Below, one piece after another: positions 1,622-52,728 of a stretch of 64,000 nt of DNA. The DNA lies in NCBI RefSeq assembly GCF_964194155.1, contig NC_135888.1, positions 61,504,001-61,568,000 on the forward strand, in the 5' to 3' direction. The notes below the pieces were generated by a model, which made no database searches, was not told where the DNA came from, and worked only from the letters and a program-made list of their open reading frames with translations. Each line of letters begins with the position of its first letter. Positions within the stretch are counted from its first letter, which is position 1. This DNA is from Cetorhinus maximus. Lineage: Eukaryota. Both the position numbers and the translations under genes were made by a program.

Positions 1622-2330
1622 GGCCTGAATCTTCCGGTCGGCGTGCAGGGGCGGGCCCCACTCACCGATGTGTAAAATGACCCGTGGTGTCATAGGGCGG
1701 GTGTCCCGATGTCACCGCGCGTCATTCCGGTCCTCAGTTTGGCGGGTGCACTGCAGAGTCGACTGCATGCCTGCCAAACTGTCAAAGGCCCATTGAAGCC
1801 ATTATTAAACGAATTGAGGTGCTTGTCCGGGCTGCCCATCCAACCTTAAGGTTGGCGGGCAGGCAAAGAGCCCAGGTGGCCTTCGCATTTTTCATGGAAC
1901 TTCGCCCACAGGCGGAATGAGGTTTCATGAAAGGTTTATAAGTTTATTAAAAATTTTTATTAAAATTCATTGACATGTCCCAGCTCATGTGACACTGTCA
2001 CATTAGGGTACATGTCTGAAATTTAAAAAAAAAAATTTTTATTCAGCTTTTCAAAACCAAAGTAATCTCCCTGAGGCAGCTCCGTGCTTCAGGGAGATTT
2101 CTGCGCTCTTCCACGCGCATGCGTGAAAGAGCGCAGGCCCCAACTCCTTCTCCTCCCCCCGCCAACACAGGTAGTGCTGAGCACTAACGGGCGCGCGTCA
2201 CGCTGCGCGAGCCTTAATTGCCCCCCCCACACAAAATGGCGGAGTGCAGCTGATCACAGGCGGCGATCGGCTACGTGCCCGCCCGCGCCCGTTCCCGAAC
2301 CGCCCACCCGACGAGGAGAAAATTCTCCTC
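1622..2330. mobile_element. PIF/Harbinger-like MITE in Gypsy pol
   Basis: Degenerate TIRs and TSD TTG; removing it restores NVTELKSFLGMVNYY. Confidence 0.85.
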
Positions 2331-3277
2331 TTGAGCTCTGTGACGTTGGTAGGAGAGGGCACTTCCTTGATTGCCCTGACTTTCTCCTCTAATGGAAGCA
2401 ACCCTTGGGCATCCACTCGATGACCCAGATATGCAACTTCCTTTGCTTGGAAGGTGCACTTTTCTTTTTTAAAACGAATGCCAGCCTCTAAAAATCTCTT
2501 CAGAACCTCTTCCAGGTTTGCCACAAGCTCTGCTTCTGTGGATCCTGTAATCAGGACATCATCCAGGTACACTAGAACTTGGGGGAGTCCTTGTAGTGAG
2601 CTTTCCATGGTTCTTGGGAAAATCGCACAGGCAGAGGACACACCGAGGGGTAGGCGTGTATTCTTCTGCGTATTTTTGGTGACATAACTTCTTGATGTGT
2701 TGTCCAGCTCGAGCAGTTGATACACATGGCTCATGCCCAGTTTAGTGTAGGAGCTTCCTCCTGTGAGGTTAGCATACAGATCTTCAATCTTTGGGATTGG
2801 GTATTTGTCTAATTTCGCTGCCTTATTTACCATTAATTTATAATCCCCGCAGATGTGACTGATTTGGTCTGGTTTTATCATAGGGACGATGGGTGTTGCC
2901 CATTCTGAAAATTGGACTGGCTGCATTGTTCCTAATTTCTCCAAACAACATAATTCCACATCTACCTTTTCTTTTGGAGCGTAAGGCACAGGTCTTACCT
3001 TAAAAAACCGAAATACTGCTTCAGGGTCCACGTATATTTTGGCTTGTAGGCCTTTGATTTTCCCCAACTCTGTCATATTTTTTCAGCAACTCTAGAATTC
3101 CTCCAGTCCTGACCTGAAAAATTTCTGAGCAGTTTAGTTTGATTTTGTTCAACCAATCACGGCCCAGAAGGCTAGGTCCTTCTCCTGTTACAACAACTAT
3201 TGGCAGCTGGGCTGCTTGATGTCTGTAGGATACAGGTACAAAGGTGATGCCTTTCACTTGTATTGCTTCTCCTGTAT

Positions 3278-17674: not shown

Positions 17675-19110
17675 TCACAGAGTCACAGAATCTTAATGGC
17701 TCAGAGGGAGGCCATCGGCCCATCGTGTCTGCACCGGCTCTCCAAATAAACATTATGCCCTAGTGCCACTGCCCTGCCTTTTCCCTGTGCCCTTGCACAT
17801 TCTTTCTATTCAAATAATCATCTAATGTCCTCTTGAATGCCTCAATTGAACCTGCCTCCACTACACTTCCAGGCAGTGCATTCCAGACCCGAACCATTCT
17901 TTGTGTGAAAAAGCTTTTTGTCATGTCACACATGCTTCTTTTGCAAAGCACTTCAAATCTGTGCCCTCTCGTTCTTGATCTTTTTACGGGTGGGAACAGC
18001 TTCTCCCTATCTACTCTATCTAGCTCCCTCATGATTTTGAACATCTCTATCAAATCTCCTCTCAGTCTTCCTCTCTCCAAGGAGAACAGTCTCCATCTCT
18101 CCAATCTATCCTCATAGCTGAAGTTTCTCATCCCTGGAACCATTCTTGTAAACCTCTTCTGCACTCTCTCCAATGTGTTCACATCCTTCCTATAATATGG
18201 TGCCCAGAACTGTACACAATTTTCCAGCTGAGGTCTAACGAGGGTCTCATATAAACTCAGCATAACCTCCTTGTTCTTGTACTCTATGTCCCTATTAATA
18301 AAGCCCAGGATGCTATATGCTTTGTTAACTGCTCTCTCCACCTGTCCTGCCACCCTCAATGACCTATGCACATATACACTCAAGTCTTTCTGCTCCTGCA
18401 CCCCATTCAAAATTTCACCCCTTATTTTATATTGTCTGTCCATGTTCTCCCTACCAAAATGTATCACCTCACACTTCTCTGCGTGGAACTTCATCTGCCA
18501 CCTATCTGCCCAATGCACCAACTTGTCTATGTCCTCTTGAAGTTCCACACCATCCTCCTCGCAGGTCACAATGCTCCCAAGCTTCGTATCATCCGCAAAG
18601 TTTGCAATTGTCCCCAGCACACCAAGATCTAGATCATTAATGTATATCAGGAAAAGCAAGGGTCCTAATACCGACCCCTAGGGAACTCCACTACAAACCT
18701 TCCTCCAGCCTGAAAAATATCCATTGACCATTACTCTCTGCTTCCTATTTTTCAGCCAATTTTGTATCCACGTTGCTACTGTCCCTTTTATTCCATGAGC
18801 AATAACTTTTCTCACGAGTTATTTGTGTGGCACTGATCAAATGCCTTTTGAAAATCCATATACACCACATCAGCAGCATTACCCTCATCGACATTTTCAG
18901 TTACCTCTTCAAAAAACTCCAGCAAGCTAGTTAAACATGATTTCTCCTTTAAAAATGCATGCTGGCTCTTCCTTATCAACCCGTATTTTTCCATGTGATG
19001 ATTAATTCTATCCCAAATAATTGTTTCTAGAATCCTGCCCATTGCTGAAGTTAAACTGACTGGTCTGTAATTGCTGGGCCTTTATCCTTACAACATTATT
19101 TTGAACAAGG
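17675..19110 (-). mobile_element. CR1 LINE, 5'-truncated, with a 299-aa open RT C-terminus
   Basis: YMDFQKAFD, GSVLGP, LFLIYINDL, FADDTKL, LERVQKRFTRM; ORF 17760-18659; TTCTGTGA tail. Confidence 0.93.
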
Positions 19111-22521: not shown

Positions 22522-23179
22522 TTATTGGCAACTATCCATGCTTTTTGCACTGCATTCTGCACCCTGAACAGTTTTGGTGAAGGTCACTATGGAAACCATA
22601 TCATCTCCGATGTCAACCCGTACCCTCCAGCGCCGGCAGACCAACATCTTCTTCAAGGCTTGTTGAAAATCCCGGTTGAGGAAGGCATAGAGTAGGGGGT
22701 TGATGGTGGAATTGCAATATCCGAACCAGGTGATGACTTTAAATACACGGTTAATGGTGGCACTGTTGAGCTGTGAGCCACTGACAGCGATGCAGATGTT
22801 GAAGGCAAAGTAGGGGAGCCAGCACAGCACGAAGACCGATATGATGATACTCATGGTCCTGGTGGCCTTGTGCTCCAGCTGTAGGTTATCTTGCCGCCTG
22901 CTGTCGGGATGATAGTGGAGGTCGAGCGTTTGCGACATGACCCGTACTGCCTTCAGGCGGGAGGCTCGGTATATGAAGAAGTACATGGTGCACATGATCA
23001 GGAAAGGGATGTAGAAGGCCAGCGCAGAGGCCACAATCGCGAAGATCCTGTTGGTGACGAACACGCACTCCCTGTTGCTGTCAAAGTCCACGCCCGGGAT
23101 TTCGTTCCAACCCTGCATCACAGGGAGGAATGAAATCAGGGAGGAGTAGACCCAGATGGCGATGGTCATGGCAATGCAC
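22522..23179 (-). CDS. Aminergic GPCR, coding exon 3 (TM4-TM7, helix 8, C-tail)
   Basis: ttcccacag|G TGC ATT GCC ATG; ISFLPVMQGWN, AFYIP, EHKATRT, CWLPYF, NPLLY, NRDF; stop at 22522. Spliced CDS 275+177+658=1110 nt = 369 aa + stop. Confidence 0.95.
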
Positions 23180-23226
23180 CTGTGGGAATGGAGGGAAAAT
23201 TAAAATAGCTTAGGAATCAGATGTCA

Positions 23227-23910
23227 GGGGCTGAATTTTTCCACAAAGTTGTTCTGCCACTGGAAATGAAAGCAGAGCTCGACCCTGGTGGGTGGCAGGT
23301 CCCTGGGCAGGATTTTTTTGCAACGCCCAGTTAAGAGGTCACTGCCGGGATTGGAATCCAGCTGAGGATGGCGAACTGCCTCTCCGAGCTGTCGGCCCAA
23401 TCAGAGGGCAGACTGCACTGAGGCTCAGCAGCACCATCGTTACAGCTTGCCACTGCTGAGGCTGGAGGATGAAGGAGAGGACCCCTCCATGCCGAGGCAC
23501 CCTCAAAGACAAAGGAAGCTGTTTTGAACGCCGGGCCTGGGGCACCTTCCATCGGCGGTGCTGTAGCAGCGAGGTCAATCATTGATGCTGGGGGGGACCC
23601 TATTGGTACTATGGACTGGCCACACTCTATGCCAGGAACCCACTGGGAGACCGCCAGAGTTTACCTGGCAGTCTCACAATGCAATGGCAGCCACTCACTA
23701 ACACGTGTAAAATGCTGCAGGGAGTGGGAAGTACCCCTTAATTTTGCACTTAATTGGCAGCTGTCGGCCATGCCTCTGAGGGCCCTGTTGCTGGTAATAC
23801 ACTGTGGCAGAAAAAAGACATTGGGCTCCCCTCCCGACACTTTCCACTGCTAATTTACCAGGCCTCCTGTTTCCCACACCGTCTCCAAAGGGTTGGTAAA
23901 ATCCAGCCCC
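23227..23910. mobile_element. PIF/Harbinger-like MITE in GPCR intron 2
   Basis: TIR GGGGCTGAATTTT / AAAATCCAGCCCC. Confidence 0.75.
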
Positions 23911-24618
23911 CTGTCTTATTAGCACAGAGAGTTGGTTCAGCATTAATAATCAGGTGTTCCAAAAAAGTTAAGCAAACCTTTGCTCAATCTGGGAGGCACC
24001 AGTTTCTAGGGGTGGTCTCACACTGCCTGCCTAAGGATGCATACAAAACTACAGCGTTGGTGCCGATTAGTTATATCAGTTCAGTTAGTAGCGTGCTCAC
24101 ATTGCGGTCAGAAGGTCATGGGTTCCAGTCTCACTCTGGTCAATTGGTCCTGTTCATAATCTAAGCTGACATATTCTCAGTGCCACAAACAGCGGCGTGA
24201 TCATGACAAGATAATCTGAAAAATGGTGCTTTCAATAGTATAGCACTTCACAGCCTGTATTATGTGCTCAGGTTCCTGGAGTGAGACTTGAACCTGCAAT
24301 TATCTGATTCTGACGTGACAGTGCTAACAACAGAGCCACAATTGTCCTGTGTCAAAAATAAAAAGTCACTGCCAATGTGCAGACCACGTTTGCTCAGAAT
24401 TGATTCTTAAAAATATGTAAATCATTTTGTGAAGTGTTTCGAGGTGTTCCAACAGTGATAAAGATCCAAATGAATACAAGTCCTTATTCTAATAGAGCAA
24501 TCTGAATATTATTTTCTCATTGAGTGAGGTGGTTTTTGATTCCCAGTCCTGTTTTACTCAGTAGAAAAGGATTTTGTGAATGAATGCCTCCTAAAGCATG
24601 AGGCCTGGTGACCCTTAC

Positions 24619-24795
24619 CTGCTGCGGGACATACATTTGGGGTAGCGATAAGGAGTAGCCACAGAACAGTAACGGTCCAAGCTGATGAAACAGAGCGTCA
24701 CGATCGAAGCTGTGCAAAACATCACATCAAATGAGATCCACACCTTGCAGAACAAACGGCCAAAGATCCAGATTCCAGTCACTTCATAGATTATG
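24619..24795 (-). CDS. Aminergic GPCR, coding exon 2 (ECL1, TM3, ICL2)
   Basis: tttctttgctcag|C ATA ATC...; WIFGRLFCKVWISFDVMFCTASIVTLCFISLDRY with D3.32 and DRY; ends AG|gtaagg; 177 nt, phase 2-2, keeps frame. Confidence 0.95.
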
Positions 24796-24944
24796 CTGAG
24801 CAAAGAAACAGATACCTTTAACCTGGGGTCTTCAAAGTGATGAAGGGTTTTGACAGAGTCAGTAATAAGGCTGGCAGCTGGACACAGGTTTGCAGGAGAA
24901 TCAGAGGAGAGATAGGAACAAACCTTCTCTACACCTACCTTAAT

Positions 24945-25860
24945 AAATCATAGAATCATATAAATTTACAGCACAGAAGGAGGCCTTTCAGCCCATCCTG
25001 TCTGTGCCGGCTTTAAAAGAGTTACCCAGCCTAATCCAGCTCTTGGTCCGTAGCCCTCTAGGTTATAGCACTTCAAGTGCATATCCAAGTATATTTTAAA
25101 GGCAGTGAGAGTTTTTACATTTTGGCCTTGTATTGCAAACCCCCACCCTCTGGGTGAAACAATTGCTCCTCAACTCCCCTTTAATCCTTCTACCAATTAC
25201 ATTAGATCTGTACTGTCTAATTATTGACCTCTCTGCTAAAGGGAATAGGTCCTTCCTATCCACTCCACCTAGGCCCCTCATCATTTTCTGCACTTCACAA
25301 TCTCCTCTCAGCCTCCTCCCTTCCAAAGGAAACCCAGCCATTCCAATCTTTCCTCAAAGCTAAAATTCTCCATCCCTGGCAACACCCTCGTAAATTTCAT
25401 CTGTACCCTCTAGTGTAATCATGTCCTTCCTGTAATGCAGCAACTGACACTGTAGGCAATACTCTAGCTGTGGCCTAACTGGTGTTTTATACTGTTCTAG
25501 CATAATCTCTCTGCATTTATATTCTATGTCTTGGCAATTGAAGGGAGGTGTACATGAGCCTTCTTAACCAGTTGACCTACCTGTCCTGCTACCTTCAGAG
25601 ATCTGTGGATATGCACACCAAAGCCCCTCTGCTCCTTTACATTTCTTAGTATCCAACCATTTATTATATATTTTCTTGTCTCATTTGTCCTCCCCGAATG
25701 CATTACCTCACATTTGCCTGGATTGAATTCCTTTTGCCACCTTCCTGCCCACCTGGTCCATCCATTGATGTCTTTCTGCAGTCTCCAGCTTCCTGCTTCA
25801 CTGTCAAGAACATGCCCCAATTTTATATCATCTACAAACTTCTTAATCATGCCACCTACA
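24945..25860 (-). mobile_element. CR1 LINE fragment in GPCR intron 1
   Basis: KFVDDIKLG, FNPGKCEVMH, RRLRGD; ATTCTATG tail. Confidence 0.88.
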
Positions 25861-26194
25861 GTTAATACTAAAGATGAAGATCATTTTTTTGAATGCATTG
25901 AGAGGTTCTGATTTGTAATGTTGGAATGGATTGCTTGAAAGGGTGGTGGAAACAGCTTCAATAATGACTTTCAAAAGAGAATTGGATATATTCTTGAAAA
26001 GAGAAAAAAAATGTTGCAGAGCTGTGGGAGAAAGTGAGGAAGTGGGACTAAGTGGATCAATCTTTTAAAGAGTTGGCATGGAAATGATGGGCTGAATGGC
26101 CACTTCTGTTCTGTATGAATCTATGAAAAAATTTGCCTGCTTCAAAGGAATCACAGTTGATATTAACATTGACACTTCACAGCTTTTTAAAATG

Positions 26195-26521
26195 TATTCT
26201 TTCACTGGAAGGCTAGCATTAGTTGCCCATCCCTAATTGTTCTTGAGCTAAGGGGCTTGTGTAGCCATTTAAGAGTCAACCACATTGCTGTGGGTCTGGT
26301 TCACACCTATGGGTCCTCCCCTTACCAGATGTTTGTTTTTTTTCAACAACAATCAATGATAGTTTCATGGTCTCCATTACTAAGACTAGCTTTTAATTCC
26401 TGATTTATTAATTGAATTCAAATGCCACCAGCTGATATGGTGGGAGTTGAACCCATATCCCCAAAGCATTAGTCTAGGCTCTAGATTACTAACCCAGTGA
26501 CATTACTGCTATGCCACCATC
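26195..26521 (-). mobile_element. tRNA-derived SINE sharing its tail with the second CR1 family
   Basis: Head GGTGGCATAGCAGTAATGTCACTGG...GGGTTCAACTCCC on minus; similar copies at 52405-53560 and ~20945-21290. Confidence 0.7.
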
Positions 26522-26536
26522 TCACCTAGTACTTAC

Positions 26537-26811
26537 CTAAAGGGCATGACCAGGCACGCCACCAATAGATCTGCTGTCGCTAGGGACAGGATGAACATGT
26601 AAGTCACTGTTCTCAATTTCTTCTCCAAAGCAGGGCAAATAAACACTACCATGTTTCCCAGCAGTGTCACCAGGTCCACCGTGGTCAGTATGGTCCCAAC
26701 CAGCACCTCTTGGTGGGAGATCTGGATGTGAGAGGCATTCCCAACTCCGAGAGAAACCAAAGCAAACAGGCTGTGGTTGGAAGGATTGCTCACATTCCAA
26801 AGAGAACCCAT
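26537..26811 (-). CDS. Aminergic class A GPCR, coding exon 1 (N-terminus, TM1, TM2)
   Basis: ATCATGG start at 26811; MGSLWNVS...TLLGNMVV (TM1 GN)...SLATADLLVACLVMPF (TM2 LAxAD); ends TTT AG|gtaagt, phase 2. An acceptor tttttgtag sits 10 nt upstream of the ATG (exon starts 26821). Confidence 0.95.
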
Positions 26812-27045
26812 GATTCATTGTCTACAAAAAAATTGGGGAAAAGAAATGCTTTAAAAGAAAATTCATTCTGATATAAAATACAAATAGTAGCAGAAATTAA
26901 AAAGGACAATATCATAGTTTACTGTGATTATAAGTGAATGCTATTACTCTTACTAACACAATATTACTTGCAGATTCCTAATACATTATTACTAATATTA
27001 ATATTATTCTCAATAAAAGATAAACCAAAATAATGTTTTACTTAC

Positions 27046-27210
27046 CCTGACGTATTGTTCAAATAACACTTAAGGTGGATTATCTATGCTGCTAAAGTTA
27101 TGTATAAAGATAGTCAAGAGTGCAACCTCCACTTAACCGACTGATTTCTGAGAGTGTGAGGATGCAGTTCAGTTCAAAAACATAGTGCTATCTAAACCTG
27201 GGGTCTACTG
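27046..27210 (-). other. Candidate 5' non-coding exon of the GPCR gene
   Basis: Donor CAGG|gtaagt at 27046/27045 pairs with the acceptor at 26822. The 5' end is only inferred as ~30 nt downstream of the TATA box. Confidence 0.55.
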
Positions 27211-27239
27211 AGAAAATTGAACATTAAAGCGGAGGAGCA

Positions 27240-27492
27240 TTTATAGAGCAGAGTATTGCAGGGGAGCTGCGGTCCTCACCAATCAGAGTTGATCAGACAA
27301 CAGGCAGTCATCTCCACTCACACTTGAAAAGCGTTCCCCACCAATCAAGAGTTTAGGACGTCATTGCTGCAATAAAATCCACTTTAAGAGCCTGAATTTT
27401 CCCATATTGACAATGTACAGATAGCAGGGCTGCATTCTAAACTGATCTGAATTGTGATTCACAGTAAAGAACACAGCTGATCAGTGACGTCT
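27240..27492 (-). promoter_or_regulatory. Candidate Pol II promoter of the GPCR gene
   Basis: TATAAA (minus) at 27240-27245; CCAATCA at 27279 and 27341; CRE-like GACGTCA at ~27357 and TGACGTCT at 27485-27492; repeat-free region. Confidence 0.55.
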
Positions 27493-49793: not shown

Positions 49794-50366
49794 CTACAGG
49801 GGCGTGACATCCAGCACAGGCAACCTGTTTAATATGGGAGACGAGGCCCCGACTGAAATTTCCTCCAAGTAGGCAATGGCTGGGTTGTCGCAAGCAGTTT
49901 TCATCTTCATCTGTGGAGATTTCTCACTGCAACTGGCACCTTCCCGGGTCTCCGACTTGTCCGAACAAACGCAATGGTCCGTGCAGCAGAGGGCAGCGTT
50001 AGTTATCACACGGTCCATTGGCTTCAAGGAGTGCATCCAGACTGGGAGGAAGTCCCACGACTGCAGTTTCTTGGGCAGATAGCTGGGCCTGCGCGTTTGC
50101 AAGACGTTGGTGATGCCTATGAAGACAAGGATACCCACAAAGGGGGCACCCACTCCTATAAGAACCTGCCAACCAGCCATGGAGAGTCCAAAGATGAGCG
50201 AGGGCAGCAGAAGGAAGCAGATGATCAGATATAAAACAGCAAACCAGCGGTACTTGGCAGTTCGTTCTCCCAAGGTCTTTGCCATGCGGATGGGGAAGCG
50301 GGTGATTGGAAACGGGTACCACAGTATAATCCCAGCGATATTGAAAAAGAAATGGGAAAGAGCAAT
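49794..50366 (-). CDS. SLC34A1: Type II Na/Pi cotransporter terminal coding exon
   Basis: tttttgcag|ATT GCT: [18 protein letters not shown]...[12 protein letters not shown]...WMHSLKP...YLEE...DVTPL*. SAFQ, RTAKY, LLLPSL, MHSLKP and the absence of the long IIb Cys cluster favour IIa over IIb. IIc is not fully excluded. Confidence 0.9.
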
Positions 50367-51419
50367 CTGCAAAAAGAAAGAGTTTGAATGTAAATAGGTG
50401 CTCCTCATTACTTAGGCAAAGCCACCTTGAACTGATCCAAGAACAACACTGTGCAAGATCCTTTTCAAGATGAAGAAAGACTGCAAATGCTGGAAATATA
50501 AGAGGCCAATTAACATCCAGAAAGAGCAATGACATGTTAGTGTTTCTGGTGTAGAAAGATAGGGAATGCTAGATGGGAATGACCACAGTCTGTTTAGTTT
50601 GCCTTCTAGGACTTTGGATGCAATGACAGTGAAGAATAATTCTCTATCAATCAGTCTAGAATAGACATGGGGTCTAATTTTGTCTCAATTAAAGGCTTGA
50701 GGCAAAAGTGCTACTGACTGGGCTACAGCTACCTCTGTGTGGCTTGCTGCCTCAGTTGCATAGTTTCATGTGAACAGGCCTGAAGGCAATAATAGAGAGG
50801 GTTCCTGAGCAAATCACCTCGATAGCAAATCACTTGTCTCCATCGGTCATGCATTTTTCAATGACACCATGTTTCCTTTCACTGGACCAATCGGCTTGCT
50901 TAGCTTGTTCAACTGCATGATTCTTTACATCAAATGATCCTTTATTATTGGTCAGTTTGAAGATGCAAGGAAACGTCTGCAAAGTCAGTGATTGCCTGAA
51001 GGTCTCACATTCAGCCCTCAGTCTGCTCTGCACTAATTGCCTCAGCCAATGAAAAAGAAGGGAACTACAATTGGTCTCAGCGCTCTTTATCTAAGGAGAC
51101 TTAAAGTTAACTGAGCTTTCTGCTTTCCACTACCATCTATTGCCTTCTGCTGGGAAGTGTGCATTAGAACATGGTGTGATGGACCTCCATGGCTGAATAC
51201 TGGCTGAAGCACATTGGACAGACAGGTGAGCATGTGAAAGATGAGCACTTGGATTTGGTGTCAAAGGGCTGCCACTGTTCTATACAGCCATGGCCCAGCC
51301 TAGGTCAGCACCTCCATGAATGAAGCAAGTTAGGGAACATAGTCTTGGAAGCATTTCCACATTTGTATTCATCATCAATTACAAACAGCTATAACTTATT
51401 GACAAAGGTTTGGTCTTAC

Positions 51420-51544
51420 CTGGAATGCACTTGGTAGCATGTCACCTGGACTGGCCAAAGCTGCCAAGACTGCAGTGGTGGTGGTGCCAATATTGGATCC
51501 CAAGGTCAAAGGGTAGGCACGTTCAATACTGATCACCCCAATAC
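51420..51544 (-). CDS. SLC34A1: Type II Na/Pi cotransporter exon (exon 12 equivalent)
   Basis: gtctag|GT ATT: [42 protein letters not shown]|gtaaga; 125 nt. Confidence 0.95.
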
Positions 51545-52728
51545 CTAGACAACAGGAAAGAGCACCATAGGCCCAATTCAACACAATCCAACTGATCAAA
51601 CAGTACATACAGCAACCATTAACTTATCAAGTATTAAAATATCCAAGCTAAGAAGCCTTGGTGGTCAATAATTTAAGGTTTGAAGTCAGGGTTTGCCACT
51701 GGAGTTATACCGATTGTGCAGTGAAATTCTAATAGGACAGGTAGAAGGTTTCCTTTGGGAGCCATTCTGACAACAGGCTGACTTACATTCAGTACCTCCG
51801 GAATTCTCTGCTGGAAGTAATAGGGGAATGTTGCGTAATTGGTGTCACTGATGTCCTCACTGTGTACAAGGAAATTCTGTGTCTTCCTGGAGTCCAGGAG
51901 TGTTGGGAAGGGAGTTAAATTTTAAAGGTCTGCAAAGGTGTGGAATCAATCATTCTCAGAAAGATCAAACCATCTCTCAAACCTGTAAATTTAAAAATGG
52001 CACAGCCTTTCCATGACCCATGAAAATCAGAATGCTGTGGTAAGGGGCTGGGGGCAGGGGTGGGGGGGAGGATGAGGGGCAGGAGGGGTGGAGGGGGTTG
52101 CCGTTGTTGGGACCATGGGGGACTGCCTTTCCTGCCTGTGGCTCCCTCTTTGGGCTCTGATGGCCCCGCAGGCTGCTGGAAGGAAGCTGCCTCCATGAAG
52201 CTGCCGTTCTCCCCATGTGGCAGGATGCCAGAAGCTTTGCAAAATGGCCCTTAATAAGGCCTTTAAATATCAGGCAGTTGATCCGCCTCACAGCCCACCA
52301 CTGGGAAACATCCCCCAGCCGACGTAACCCCCGATTATTTCACTGGCCATCCCTGCCTTAAGCCCACCAATTGGAGATGGTAAAATTCTGTCCAAAATAT
52401 TATTTCCTTTGTTTATTCATGGGACGTGTGCCTCAGCGGCAAGCCAACATTTGTTGCCAACCCTTAATTGCCCTTAGACTGACTAGCACTGGGCCATTTC
52501 AGAGGGCAGTTAGGAGCCAACCACCTTACTGTGGGTCTGAAGTCACATGTAGGCCAGACCAGGTAAGGACAGCAGATTCCCTTCCCTAAAGGATATTAGT
52601 GAACCAGATGGGTTTTTACAACAATCAATGATAGTCCCATGGTCACTATTTACTGAGACAGCTTTCAATTCCAGATTTATTAATTGTATTTAAATTCCAC
52701 CAGCTGCCCTGGTGGGATTTGAACACAT

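Follow-up and report, generated by a model that had tools for sequence, protein, structure and literature searches.

We analysed a 64,000-nucleotide (nt) stretch of the Cetorhinus maximus genome (NC_135888.1, positions 61,504,001 to 61,568,000 of the forward strand), hereafter called the window, which carries on its minus strand a gene for an aminergic G-protein-coupled receptor (GPCR). The three coding exons (275 + 177 + 658 nt) add up to 1110 nt and encode 369 amino acids and a stop codon, without an internal stop (Table 1). Each exon matched Pfam 7tm_1 above the cut-off, and the marks of a class A aminergic receptor are all present: 7tm_1, D3.32, DRY, CWxP (here CWLP), W7.40/Y7.43 and NPxxY (here NPLLY). 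A first-pass annotation had described an open three-exon coding sequence with two phase-2 introns, at the ends of the second transmembrane helix (TM2) and of the second intracellular loop (ICL2). Splicing and the Pfam matches confirmed this structure, and the residues listed there (D3.32, DRY, CWxP, NPxxY, the pocket residues, D1.43, Y2.40 and a short ICL3) were all found.

The junction of intron 1 is contained in a 346-nt contig of run X3, which covers positions 26742-26537 and continues at 24795-24656 with an exact join; this run comes from a related organism and is presumed to be RNA, as guessed by a program. Among the X3 matches listed, no contig bridges the intron 2 junction or covers a predicted 5′ exon. 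The position of intron 2 is predicted from full-length homologues and from a paralogue, described below, which has an intron at the same position and a middle exon likewise of 177 nt. Against exon 3, a contig of the relative showed 19 listed differences, which are only part of all differences and were not used as a selection test; 8 of them alter a residue, none in the pocket. A pseudogene or an artefact was ruled out by the open frame, the canonical splice sites and the conserved homologues, and the receptor gene is real and intact. Intron 1 contains repeat remnants, among them a LINE-like retroelement piece; the protein of the Heterodontus database model P0037 includes a similar piece at the site of intron 1, which is probably an annotation error.

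When exon 3 and one full-length relative were used as queries, orthologues with 64–93% identity were found in sharks, skate, chimaera, lamprey, bichir, sturgeon, bowfin, gar, tarpon, eel, coelacanth, lungfish, amphibians, turtles, lizards and birds. Of 7994 candidates scored with a profile built from 35 members, 567 matched. In the best 120 of the 567, 71 were family members, partial models included; the best non-member scored 282 bits and the full-length members at least 570 bits. These best 120 matches, all predicted proteins, contained no member named from mammals, invertebrates or teleosts other than elopomorphs; mammalian and teleost HTR4 appeared lower down the same list, and the unnamed members clustered with sharks, lizards or birds. 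The absences concern predicted proteins, not genome remnants. When 1.84 billion 50%-representatives were scanned with HMMER, the best 150 matches included no extra member. Lampreys hold two family genes, and the lamprey cluster includes UniProt S4RNQ6. The gene had been regarded as an ancient orphan absent from mammals, and the absence held in these protein searches. The antiquity is shown as far back as lampreys, with no invertebrate orthologue found. The word orphan is apt in that no characterised orthologue was found, but the gene is not a one-off: it belongs to a family of about 70 database clusters that most likely has a name already.

Trees were built with FastTree from 207 rows and with IQ-TREE, under LG+C20 with posterior mean site frequencies (PMSF), from 60 of those rows. 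Labels were taken from PDB matches for HRH2, D1 and HTR6 and from database names for others; those of the ADRB, TARL and TAAR loci are our assumption from motifs and the tree. FastTree placed the family as sister to the vertebrate and invertebrate H2-like receptors with weak support (Shimodaira–Hasegawa (SH) value of 0.83). In the IQ-TREE tree, the family was recovered as a clade of its own (100/100) with a stem of 1.32, in a polytomy within a group (96/83) made up mostly of Gs-type receptors; the first-pass annotation had regarded it as probably Gs-coupled. We take some members of this group to be Gs-coupled. The accessible parts of two papers (PMC10618075, PMC12205060) give the Gs status of group members. 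The clades formed without the family were H2 of vertebrates and invertebrates (100/99), HTR4 plus TAAR (100/99), HTR4 alone (100/100), ADRB (100/100), vertebrate D1 (100/100), HTR6 (100/99) and Oct-beta (100/100); the Dop1-type receptors and an unnamed invertebrate clade were also supported branches of the 96/83 group that exclude the family. In approximately unbiased (AU) tests on 40 of the 60 rows (LG+G4, 11 constraints, short searches, uncorrected p-values), joining the family with vertebrate H2 (p = 0.015), HTR4 (0.012), TAAR/TARL (0.014) or D1 (0.047, narrowly) was rejected; HTR6 was represented by one first exon and one amphioxus row. The earlier view that the gene fits no named vertebrate receptor agrees with these results: it does not nest with support in the HTR4 or HRH2 clade, and it has no intron in common with HTR4 or HTR6 of this genome. 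We have little doubt that the family is a separate clade of aminergic GPCRs. The unnamed invertebrate clade (P0124-P0131, P0140 and P0205; 98/91), which holds Platynereis 'orphan GPCR 46' and Limulus 'beta-2-like', has S5.42/S5.43/S5.46, Y6.55 and T7.39 and is separate from Oct-beta, Dop1 and Dop2.

An orphan amine cluster near HRH2, rooted by two lampreys, was named GPR187 by Rinne et al. (2019; PMC6504862). In the accessible parts of that paper, the clade comprises two genes from lampreys, seven from sauropsids (2 reptile and 5 bird) and others from gar, coelacanth and amphibian, with none from a mammal or teleost; in the supplement, as far as available, these counts stand under GPR181, and GPR187A/B denotes a different family. 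The paper counts 142 clades without human orthologues. Its GPR187/GPR181 clade has the same species spread as the family described here, two lamprey genes included; its table, in the part available, is without cartilaginous fish, whereas the present family includes them as well as eel and tarpon. As to the position near HRH2, the present family is a weakly supported sister of H2 in FastTree and part of a polytomy in IQ-TREE, and the AU test retains sisterhood with all H2 (p = 0.43). It is very likely that the window family is GPR187/GPR181. The accessible text of Rinne et al. showed no paralogue, intron, synteny or pocket analysis for this clade. No functional study or characterised orthologue was found in a literature search that fell short of most subscription papers; in the parts available, Lagerstrom 2006 (PMC1472694) gives only HRH1, HRH2 and three HRH3-like genes as the chicken histamine receptors, and Goulty 2023 (PMC10244343) does not mention the clade. 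The clade has probably been noticed before, in silico only.

The pocket was examined in an alignment of the 35 family sequences and compared with 183 other rows. The window receptor has A5.42/S5.43/A5.46, Y6.51, N6.55, K7.36, T7.39, W7.40 and Y7.43, together with W3.28, Y2.40, D1.43 (confirmed with N53 taken as 1.50) and the helix 8 motif LNRDF; its ICL3 (5.64-6.30) is 31 residues long, and its ICL2 carries P-Y. Across the family, 20 of the 21 pocket positions are invariant (35/35), and the same holds for A5.42/A5.46. This fixed pocket suggests one conserved endogenous ligand rather than a chemosensory role. The TM-core identity is 79–80% to the duck and lamprey orthologues and does not exceed 44% for any of the named receptors in the comparison. 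Of the 21 pocket positions, 17 match in the Dop1-type invertebrate rows, 16 in the shark TARL L006, 14 each in HTR4 and the beta-adrenoceptors, 12–13 in vertebrate D1, and 12 each in HRH2 and Oct-beta. The family's clusters are auto-labelled 'histamine H2 receptor-like' or 'octopamine receptor-like'; on the pocket and tree evidence, we rejected the database labels 'octopamine receptor-like', 'HRH2' and 'D5-like'.

The likenesses to 5-HT4, H2 and 5-HT6 motifs pointed out in the first-pass annotation are real, but they form a mosaic. The TM5 triad and N6.55 are identical to those of the shark TARL L006 and close to those of HTR4 (C-S-A, N), and the motifs ISFLPxMQGWN and AFYIP, as well as the chromosomes, are also shared with 5-HT4/TARL. 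Differences from these receptors are W3.28 (R3.28 in HTR4), Y6.51 and T7.39. The window helix 8 reads LNRDF and does not follow the TAAR/TARL TM7 fingerprints, NSxxNPxxYxxxYxWF or NSxxNPxLYxxxxxSF (PMC8890504, accessible part). With 5-HT6, the receptor shares W3.28, A5.42-S5.43, N6.55, T7.39 and TWxGYCNST; it differs in A5.46 (T5.46 in HTR6) and Y6.51, and the identity is 33% over the part compared. D1-like, beta-adrenergic, Dop1 and Oct-beta receptors carry S5.42/S5.46, the catechol serines, and the window receptor has neither. The gene structures also differ. HTR4 has introns in ICL1, between R and Y of DRY and in the second extracellular loop (ECL2), and the HTR4 pieces found in this genome are interrupted at about 58, 123-133 and 178-181 of P0121 (DRY at 126); the introns of the window receptor lie elsewhere (2.61 and 4.41). 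Exon 1 of HTR6 (L022) is open to ICL3, where its first intron lies, unlike that of the window gene. In this genome, each HRH2, D1-family, beta or TAAR locus consists of one open frame, and the introns of the family are common to none of the HRH2, D1-family, beta, TAAR, HTR6 and HTR4 loci. Besides, the genome carries four intronless D1-family genes (L005, L007, L008 and L011), one of which is on the small contig C2970, and an HTR1A-like frame (L027, C1:160.46 Mb) that reads NWQGY in TM7 versus NWLGY in its relatives, either a variant or an assembly error.

A reading that joins these features is that the window gene, intact in this shark, belongs to a vertebrate-wide, separate amine-receptor clade, likely GPR187/GPR181, and that its receptor would take an endogenous non-catechol amine and signal through Gs and cyclic AMP (cAMP). 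As a whole, we give it about an even chance. In such a pocket, D3.32 would form the salt bridge to the amine, W6.48, Y6.51 and F6.52 would build a cage around the ring, and N6.55, with S5.43 or Y6.51, may accept a ring hydroxyl as in 5-HT4/5-HT6; polar 6.55 in 5-HT4/6 is described in the accessible part of PMC10618075. The A5.42/S5.43/A5.46 set in TM5 would offer neither the D1/beta catechol serine pair nor the H2 pair D5.42/T5.46. TARLs and HTR4 are activated by tryptamine and its derivatives (PMC8890504, accessible part), and because the A-S-A set with N6.55 is TARL/5-HT4/5-HT6-like, indolethylamines were ranked first: serotonin or tryptamine may be the best agonist, a tentative choice that we put somewhat below an even chance. 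Gs coupling, which is predicted from the tree position, the 31-residue ICL3 and the ICL2 P-Y, is probable; a short ICL3, an aromatic ICL2 residue after the proline and a small residue at 5.65 would all fit it, and the expected response to a serotonin- or tryptamine-like amine would be Gs activation and a rise in cAMP.

Several findings weigh against this reading. The AU tests keep sister positions to all H2 (p = 0.43), HTR6 (0.37), Dop1 (0.37), the unnamed invertebrate clade (0.34), HTR4 plus TAAR (0.25), ADRB (0.22) and Oct-beta (0.19); the four rejections fall after correction for 11 tests, the SH test rejects none, and the short LG+G4 searches and the long stem, which is hard to place, weaken the rejections. 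GPR187 was matched by species spread and, tentatively, by position, not by accession (ENSPMAP00000006842), and the ligand and Gs coupling are predictions from sequence. The end of TM5 is atypical, with S5.65 in none of the 183 non-family rows and K in place of Q/H at 5.68. The Dop1-type pocket match is the highest and exceeds those of the 5-HT receptors, and the beta-adrenoceptors equal HTR4. The best PDB match is human H2 (221 bits, versus 209 for 5-HT4), and the receptor shares Y6.51 with the histamine receptors, a residue that contacts histamine in H1R (PMC12205060, accessible part).

The last two points, along with EHKAT and LNRDF, the short ICL3, the 44% core identity to shark HRH2, the FastTree sisterhood to the bilaterian H2 clade, the retained sister position to all H2 and the placement near HRH2 by Rinne et al. 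(PMC6504862, accessible part), would suit a divergent sister of the H2 lineage that still binds histamine via D3.32 and Y6.51, with N6.55/T7.39 replacing the TM5 contacts. We consider this decidedly unlikely: shark HRH2 has D5.42/T5.46 and H2 has F6.55 where the window receptor has A5.42/A5.46 and N6.55, the pocket match is only 12/21, IQ-TREE does not unite the family with H2, and the union with vertebrate H2 was rejected in the AU test. In addition, a separate, intact and intronless HRH2 is present in the genome at C10:85.4 Mb; shark HRH2 (L003) is one open frame, whereas the window receptor has two coding introns and belongs to a separate clade.

The Dop1-type pocket, which also has T7.39, differs from that of the family at only 4 of the 21 positions, S5.42A and S5.46A among them. 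A receptor for trace amines (phenylethylamine, tyramine or octopamine), with a Dop1-like pocket minus both catechol serines, would account for this, and the AU tests keep Dop1 and Oct-beta as candidate sister groups; phenylethylamines also act on TARL1, whose TM5 is similar (PMC8890504, accessible part). It is nevertheless unlikely, as the identity to Dop1-type receptors is 38–39% with no supported grouping, the Oct-beta rows have S5.42/S5.46 and Y6.55 and match at 12/21, leaving the label 'octopamine receptor-like' without pocket support, and nesting in TAAR/TARL was rejected.

Outside the pocket comparison proper, D1.43, Y2.40 and K7.36 are invariant in the family (35/35) and rare among the 183 other rows (at most 11, 3 and 11 rows, respectively). 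These residues, and a very long stem followed by near-stasis that suggests functional change, could point to a non-classical endogenous amine, e.g. a diamine, a guanidine or an acidic or zwitterionic compound, bound via the invariant D1.43, E2.65 and K7.36. We regard this as improbable, since by their numbering these residues fall outside the core pocket and the core is a conventional arylethylamine pocket. An AlphaFold model of the 35-sequence family alignment, with a mean predicted local distance difference test score (pLDDT) of 47, was too poor to locate them and was not used.

A second copy of the receptor gene was found at C1:231.34-231.38 Mb. It is open, 73% identical in the last exon and interrupted at the same two intron positions. 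In a tree of the family, the window gene clusters with single genes of Heterodontus, Scyliorhinus, Hemiscyllium, Heptranchias and Callorhinchus (98/97), a subclade whose members found to date all come from cartilaginous fishes. The C1 copy joins second genes from sharks (96/90); its grouping with all bony-vertebrate genes is weaker (82/95 in the family tree; 99/95 in the 60-row tree). Of the two copies, bony vertebrates seem to have retained the C1-type one alone, which mammals and most teleosts have apparently lost as well. The window receptor has a forkhead gene 55 kb downstream (L049:7214-7876, minus strand; C10:61.471 Mb). The two closest paralogues of this forkhead gene are at C1:231.55 Mb, at a distance of about 175 kb from the second receptor copy, and at C21:66.4 Mb; we take the three (C10, C1 and C21) to be FoxI-type genes, FOXI1, FOXI3 and FOXI2, respectively. 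Pairs of TARL and alpha-1-type genes, so labelled presumptively from the tree and recall, flank both regions (C10:71.9/72.0 and C1:226.1/226.2 Mb). An early genome duplication is the simplest explanation, and the two receptor copies likely date from one early in vertebrates. Two aspects are new here: one is the pair of paralogues, which share their intron positions and both have a FoxI-type neighbour, and another is the cartilaginous-fish-only subclade of the window copy.

Exons of an SLC34A sodium-phosphate cotransporter lie 23 kb upstream on the same strand; Pfam Na_Pi_cotrans matched one frame below the cut-off, and the last exon is presumed to belong to this family. The genome has three further SLC34A copies, of which two are separated by 0.5 Mb on C1, and SLC34A failed as a paired synteny marker, the copies (C1:116.8/117.3 and C10:49.0 Mb) being far from C1:231.3 Mb. 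Pfam scans of the window and 100 kb on each side covered 235 candidate frames (150 + 85; from 247 plus two known repeat frames), in which only the forkhead frame and two reverse-transcriptase frames, remnants of retroelements, were above the cut-off; the map of the neighbourhood is therefore incomplete.

An in-frame stop codon directly precedes the receptor ATG. Exon 1 probably starts at 26821, after an acceptor AG, and this acceptor and the donor at 27046, with a predicted 224-nt intron between 27046 and 26822, suggest a fourth, non-coding 5′ exon, whose start at about 27215 is an estimate from the TATA box position. In the paralogue, too, there is an acceptor 16 nt ahead of the ATG. The TATAAAT, CCAAT and CRE-like elements, predicted from sequence like the other signals in Table 1, suggest a putative promoter; two of the three CRE-like 7-mers in the whole window are in this cluster. 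An ATG out of frame, in a fair Kozak context, opens a frame that stops at the last three bases of exon 1 and could dampen translation.

Table 1. Positions of the receptor gene parts, predicted signals and neighbouring elements in the window
Feature	Position	Strand	Length	Remarks
Coding exon 1	26537..26811	-	275 nt	N-terminus, TM1 with D1.43, ICL1, TM2
Intron 1	24796..26536	-	1741 nt	phase 2, GT-AG; splits S92 (2.61, end of TM2)
Coding exon 2	24619..24795	-	177 nt	ECL1, TM3 with D3.32 and DRY, ICL2
Intron 2	23180..24618	-	1439 nt	phase 2, GT-AG; splits R151 (4.41, ICL2/TM4)
Coding exon 3	22522..23179	-	658 nt	TM4-TM7, helix 8, C-tail, stop
Predicted non-coding 5′ exon	27046..27215	-		donor G/GTAAGT at 27046
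Promoter-like cluster (predicted)	27239..27491	-
TATAAAT	27245-27239	-
CCAAT boxes	27283-27279, 27345-27341	-
CRE-like 7-mers	27363-27357, 27491-27485	-
Frame of upstream out-of-frame ATG	26537..26818	-	93 codons	ATG 7 nt upstream of start; overlaps the receptor frame
Candidate polyadenylation signals	ATTAAA 21697-21692, AATAAA 21524-21519	-
LINE-like piece in intron 1	25524-25880	-
Reverse-transcriptase frames	2198-3082, 17760-18677	-
SLC34A exons	49794-50411, 51399-51623	-

Vertebrate monoamine pharmacology has been built on the mammalian receptor set. It is conceivable, though rather unlikely, that the family would prove a free-standing monoamine receptor class as old as H2, 5-HT4, 5-HT6 and D1 and kept in non-mammals only, either an extra serotonin class or the receptor of an endogenous amine messenger new to vertebrates, with a second copy in sharks that was lost in bony vertebrates. 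Orphan GPCRs lost in particular lineages are common, and this clade was probably flagged in 2019. For annotation, about 70 clusters carry labels such as HRH2, 'H2-like' or 'octopamine receptor' without support from the pocket. Orthologues exist in Xenopus and birds, and the pocket, near-unchanged from lamprey to birds, implies that one endogenous ligand has been conserved, together with a signalling route apparently missing in mammals and most teleosts.

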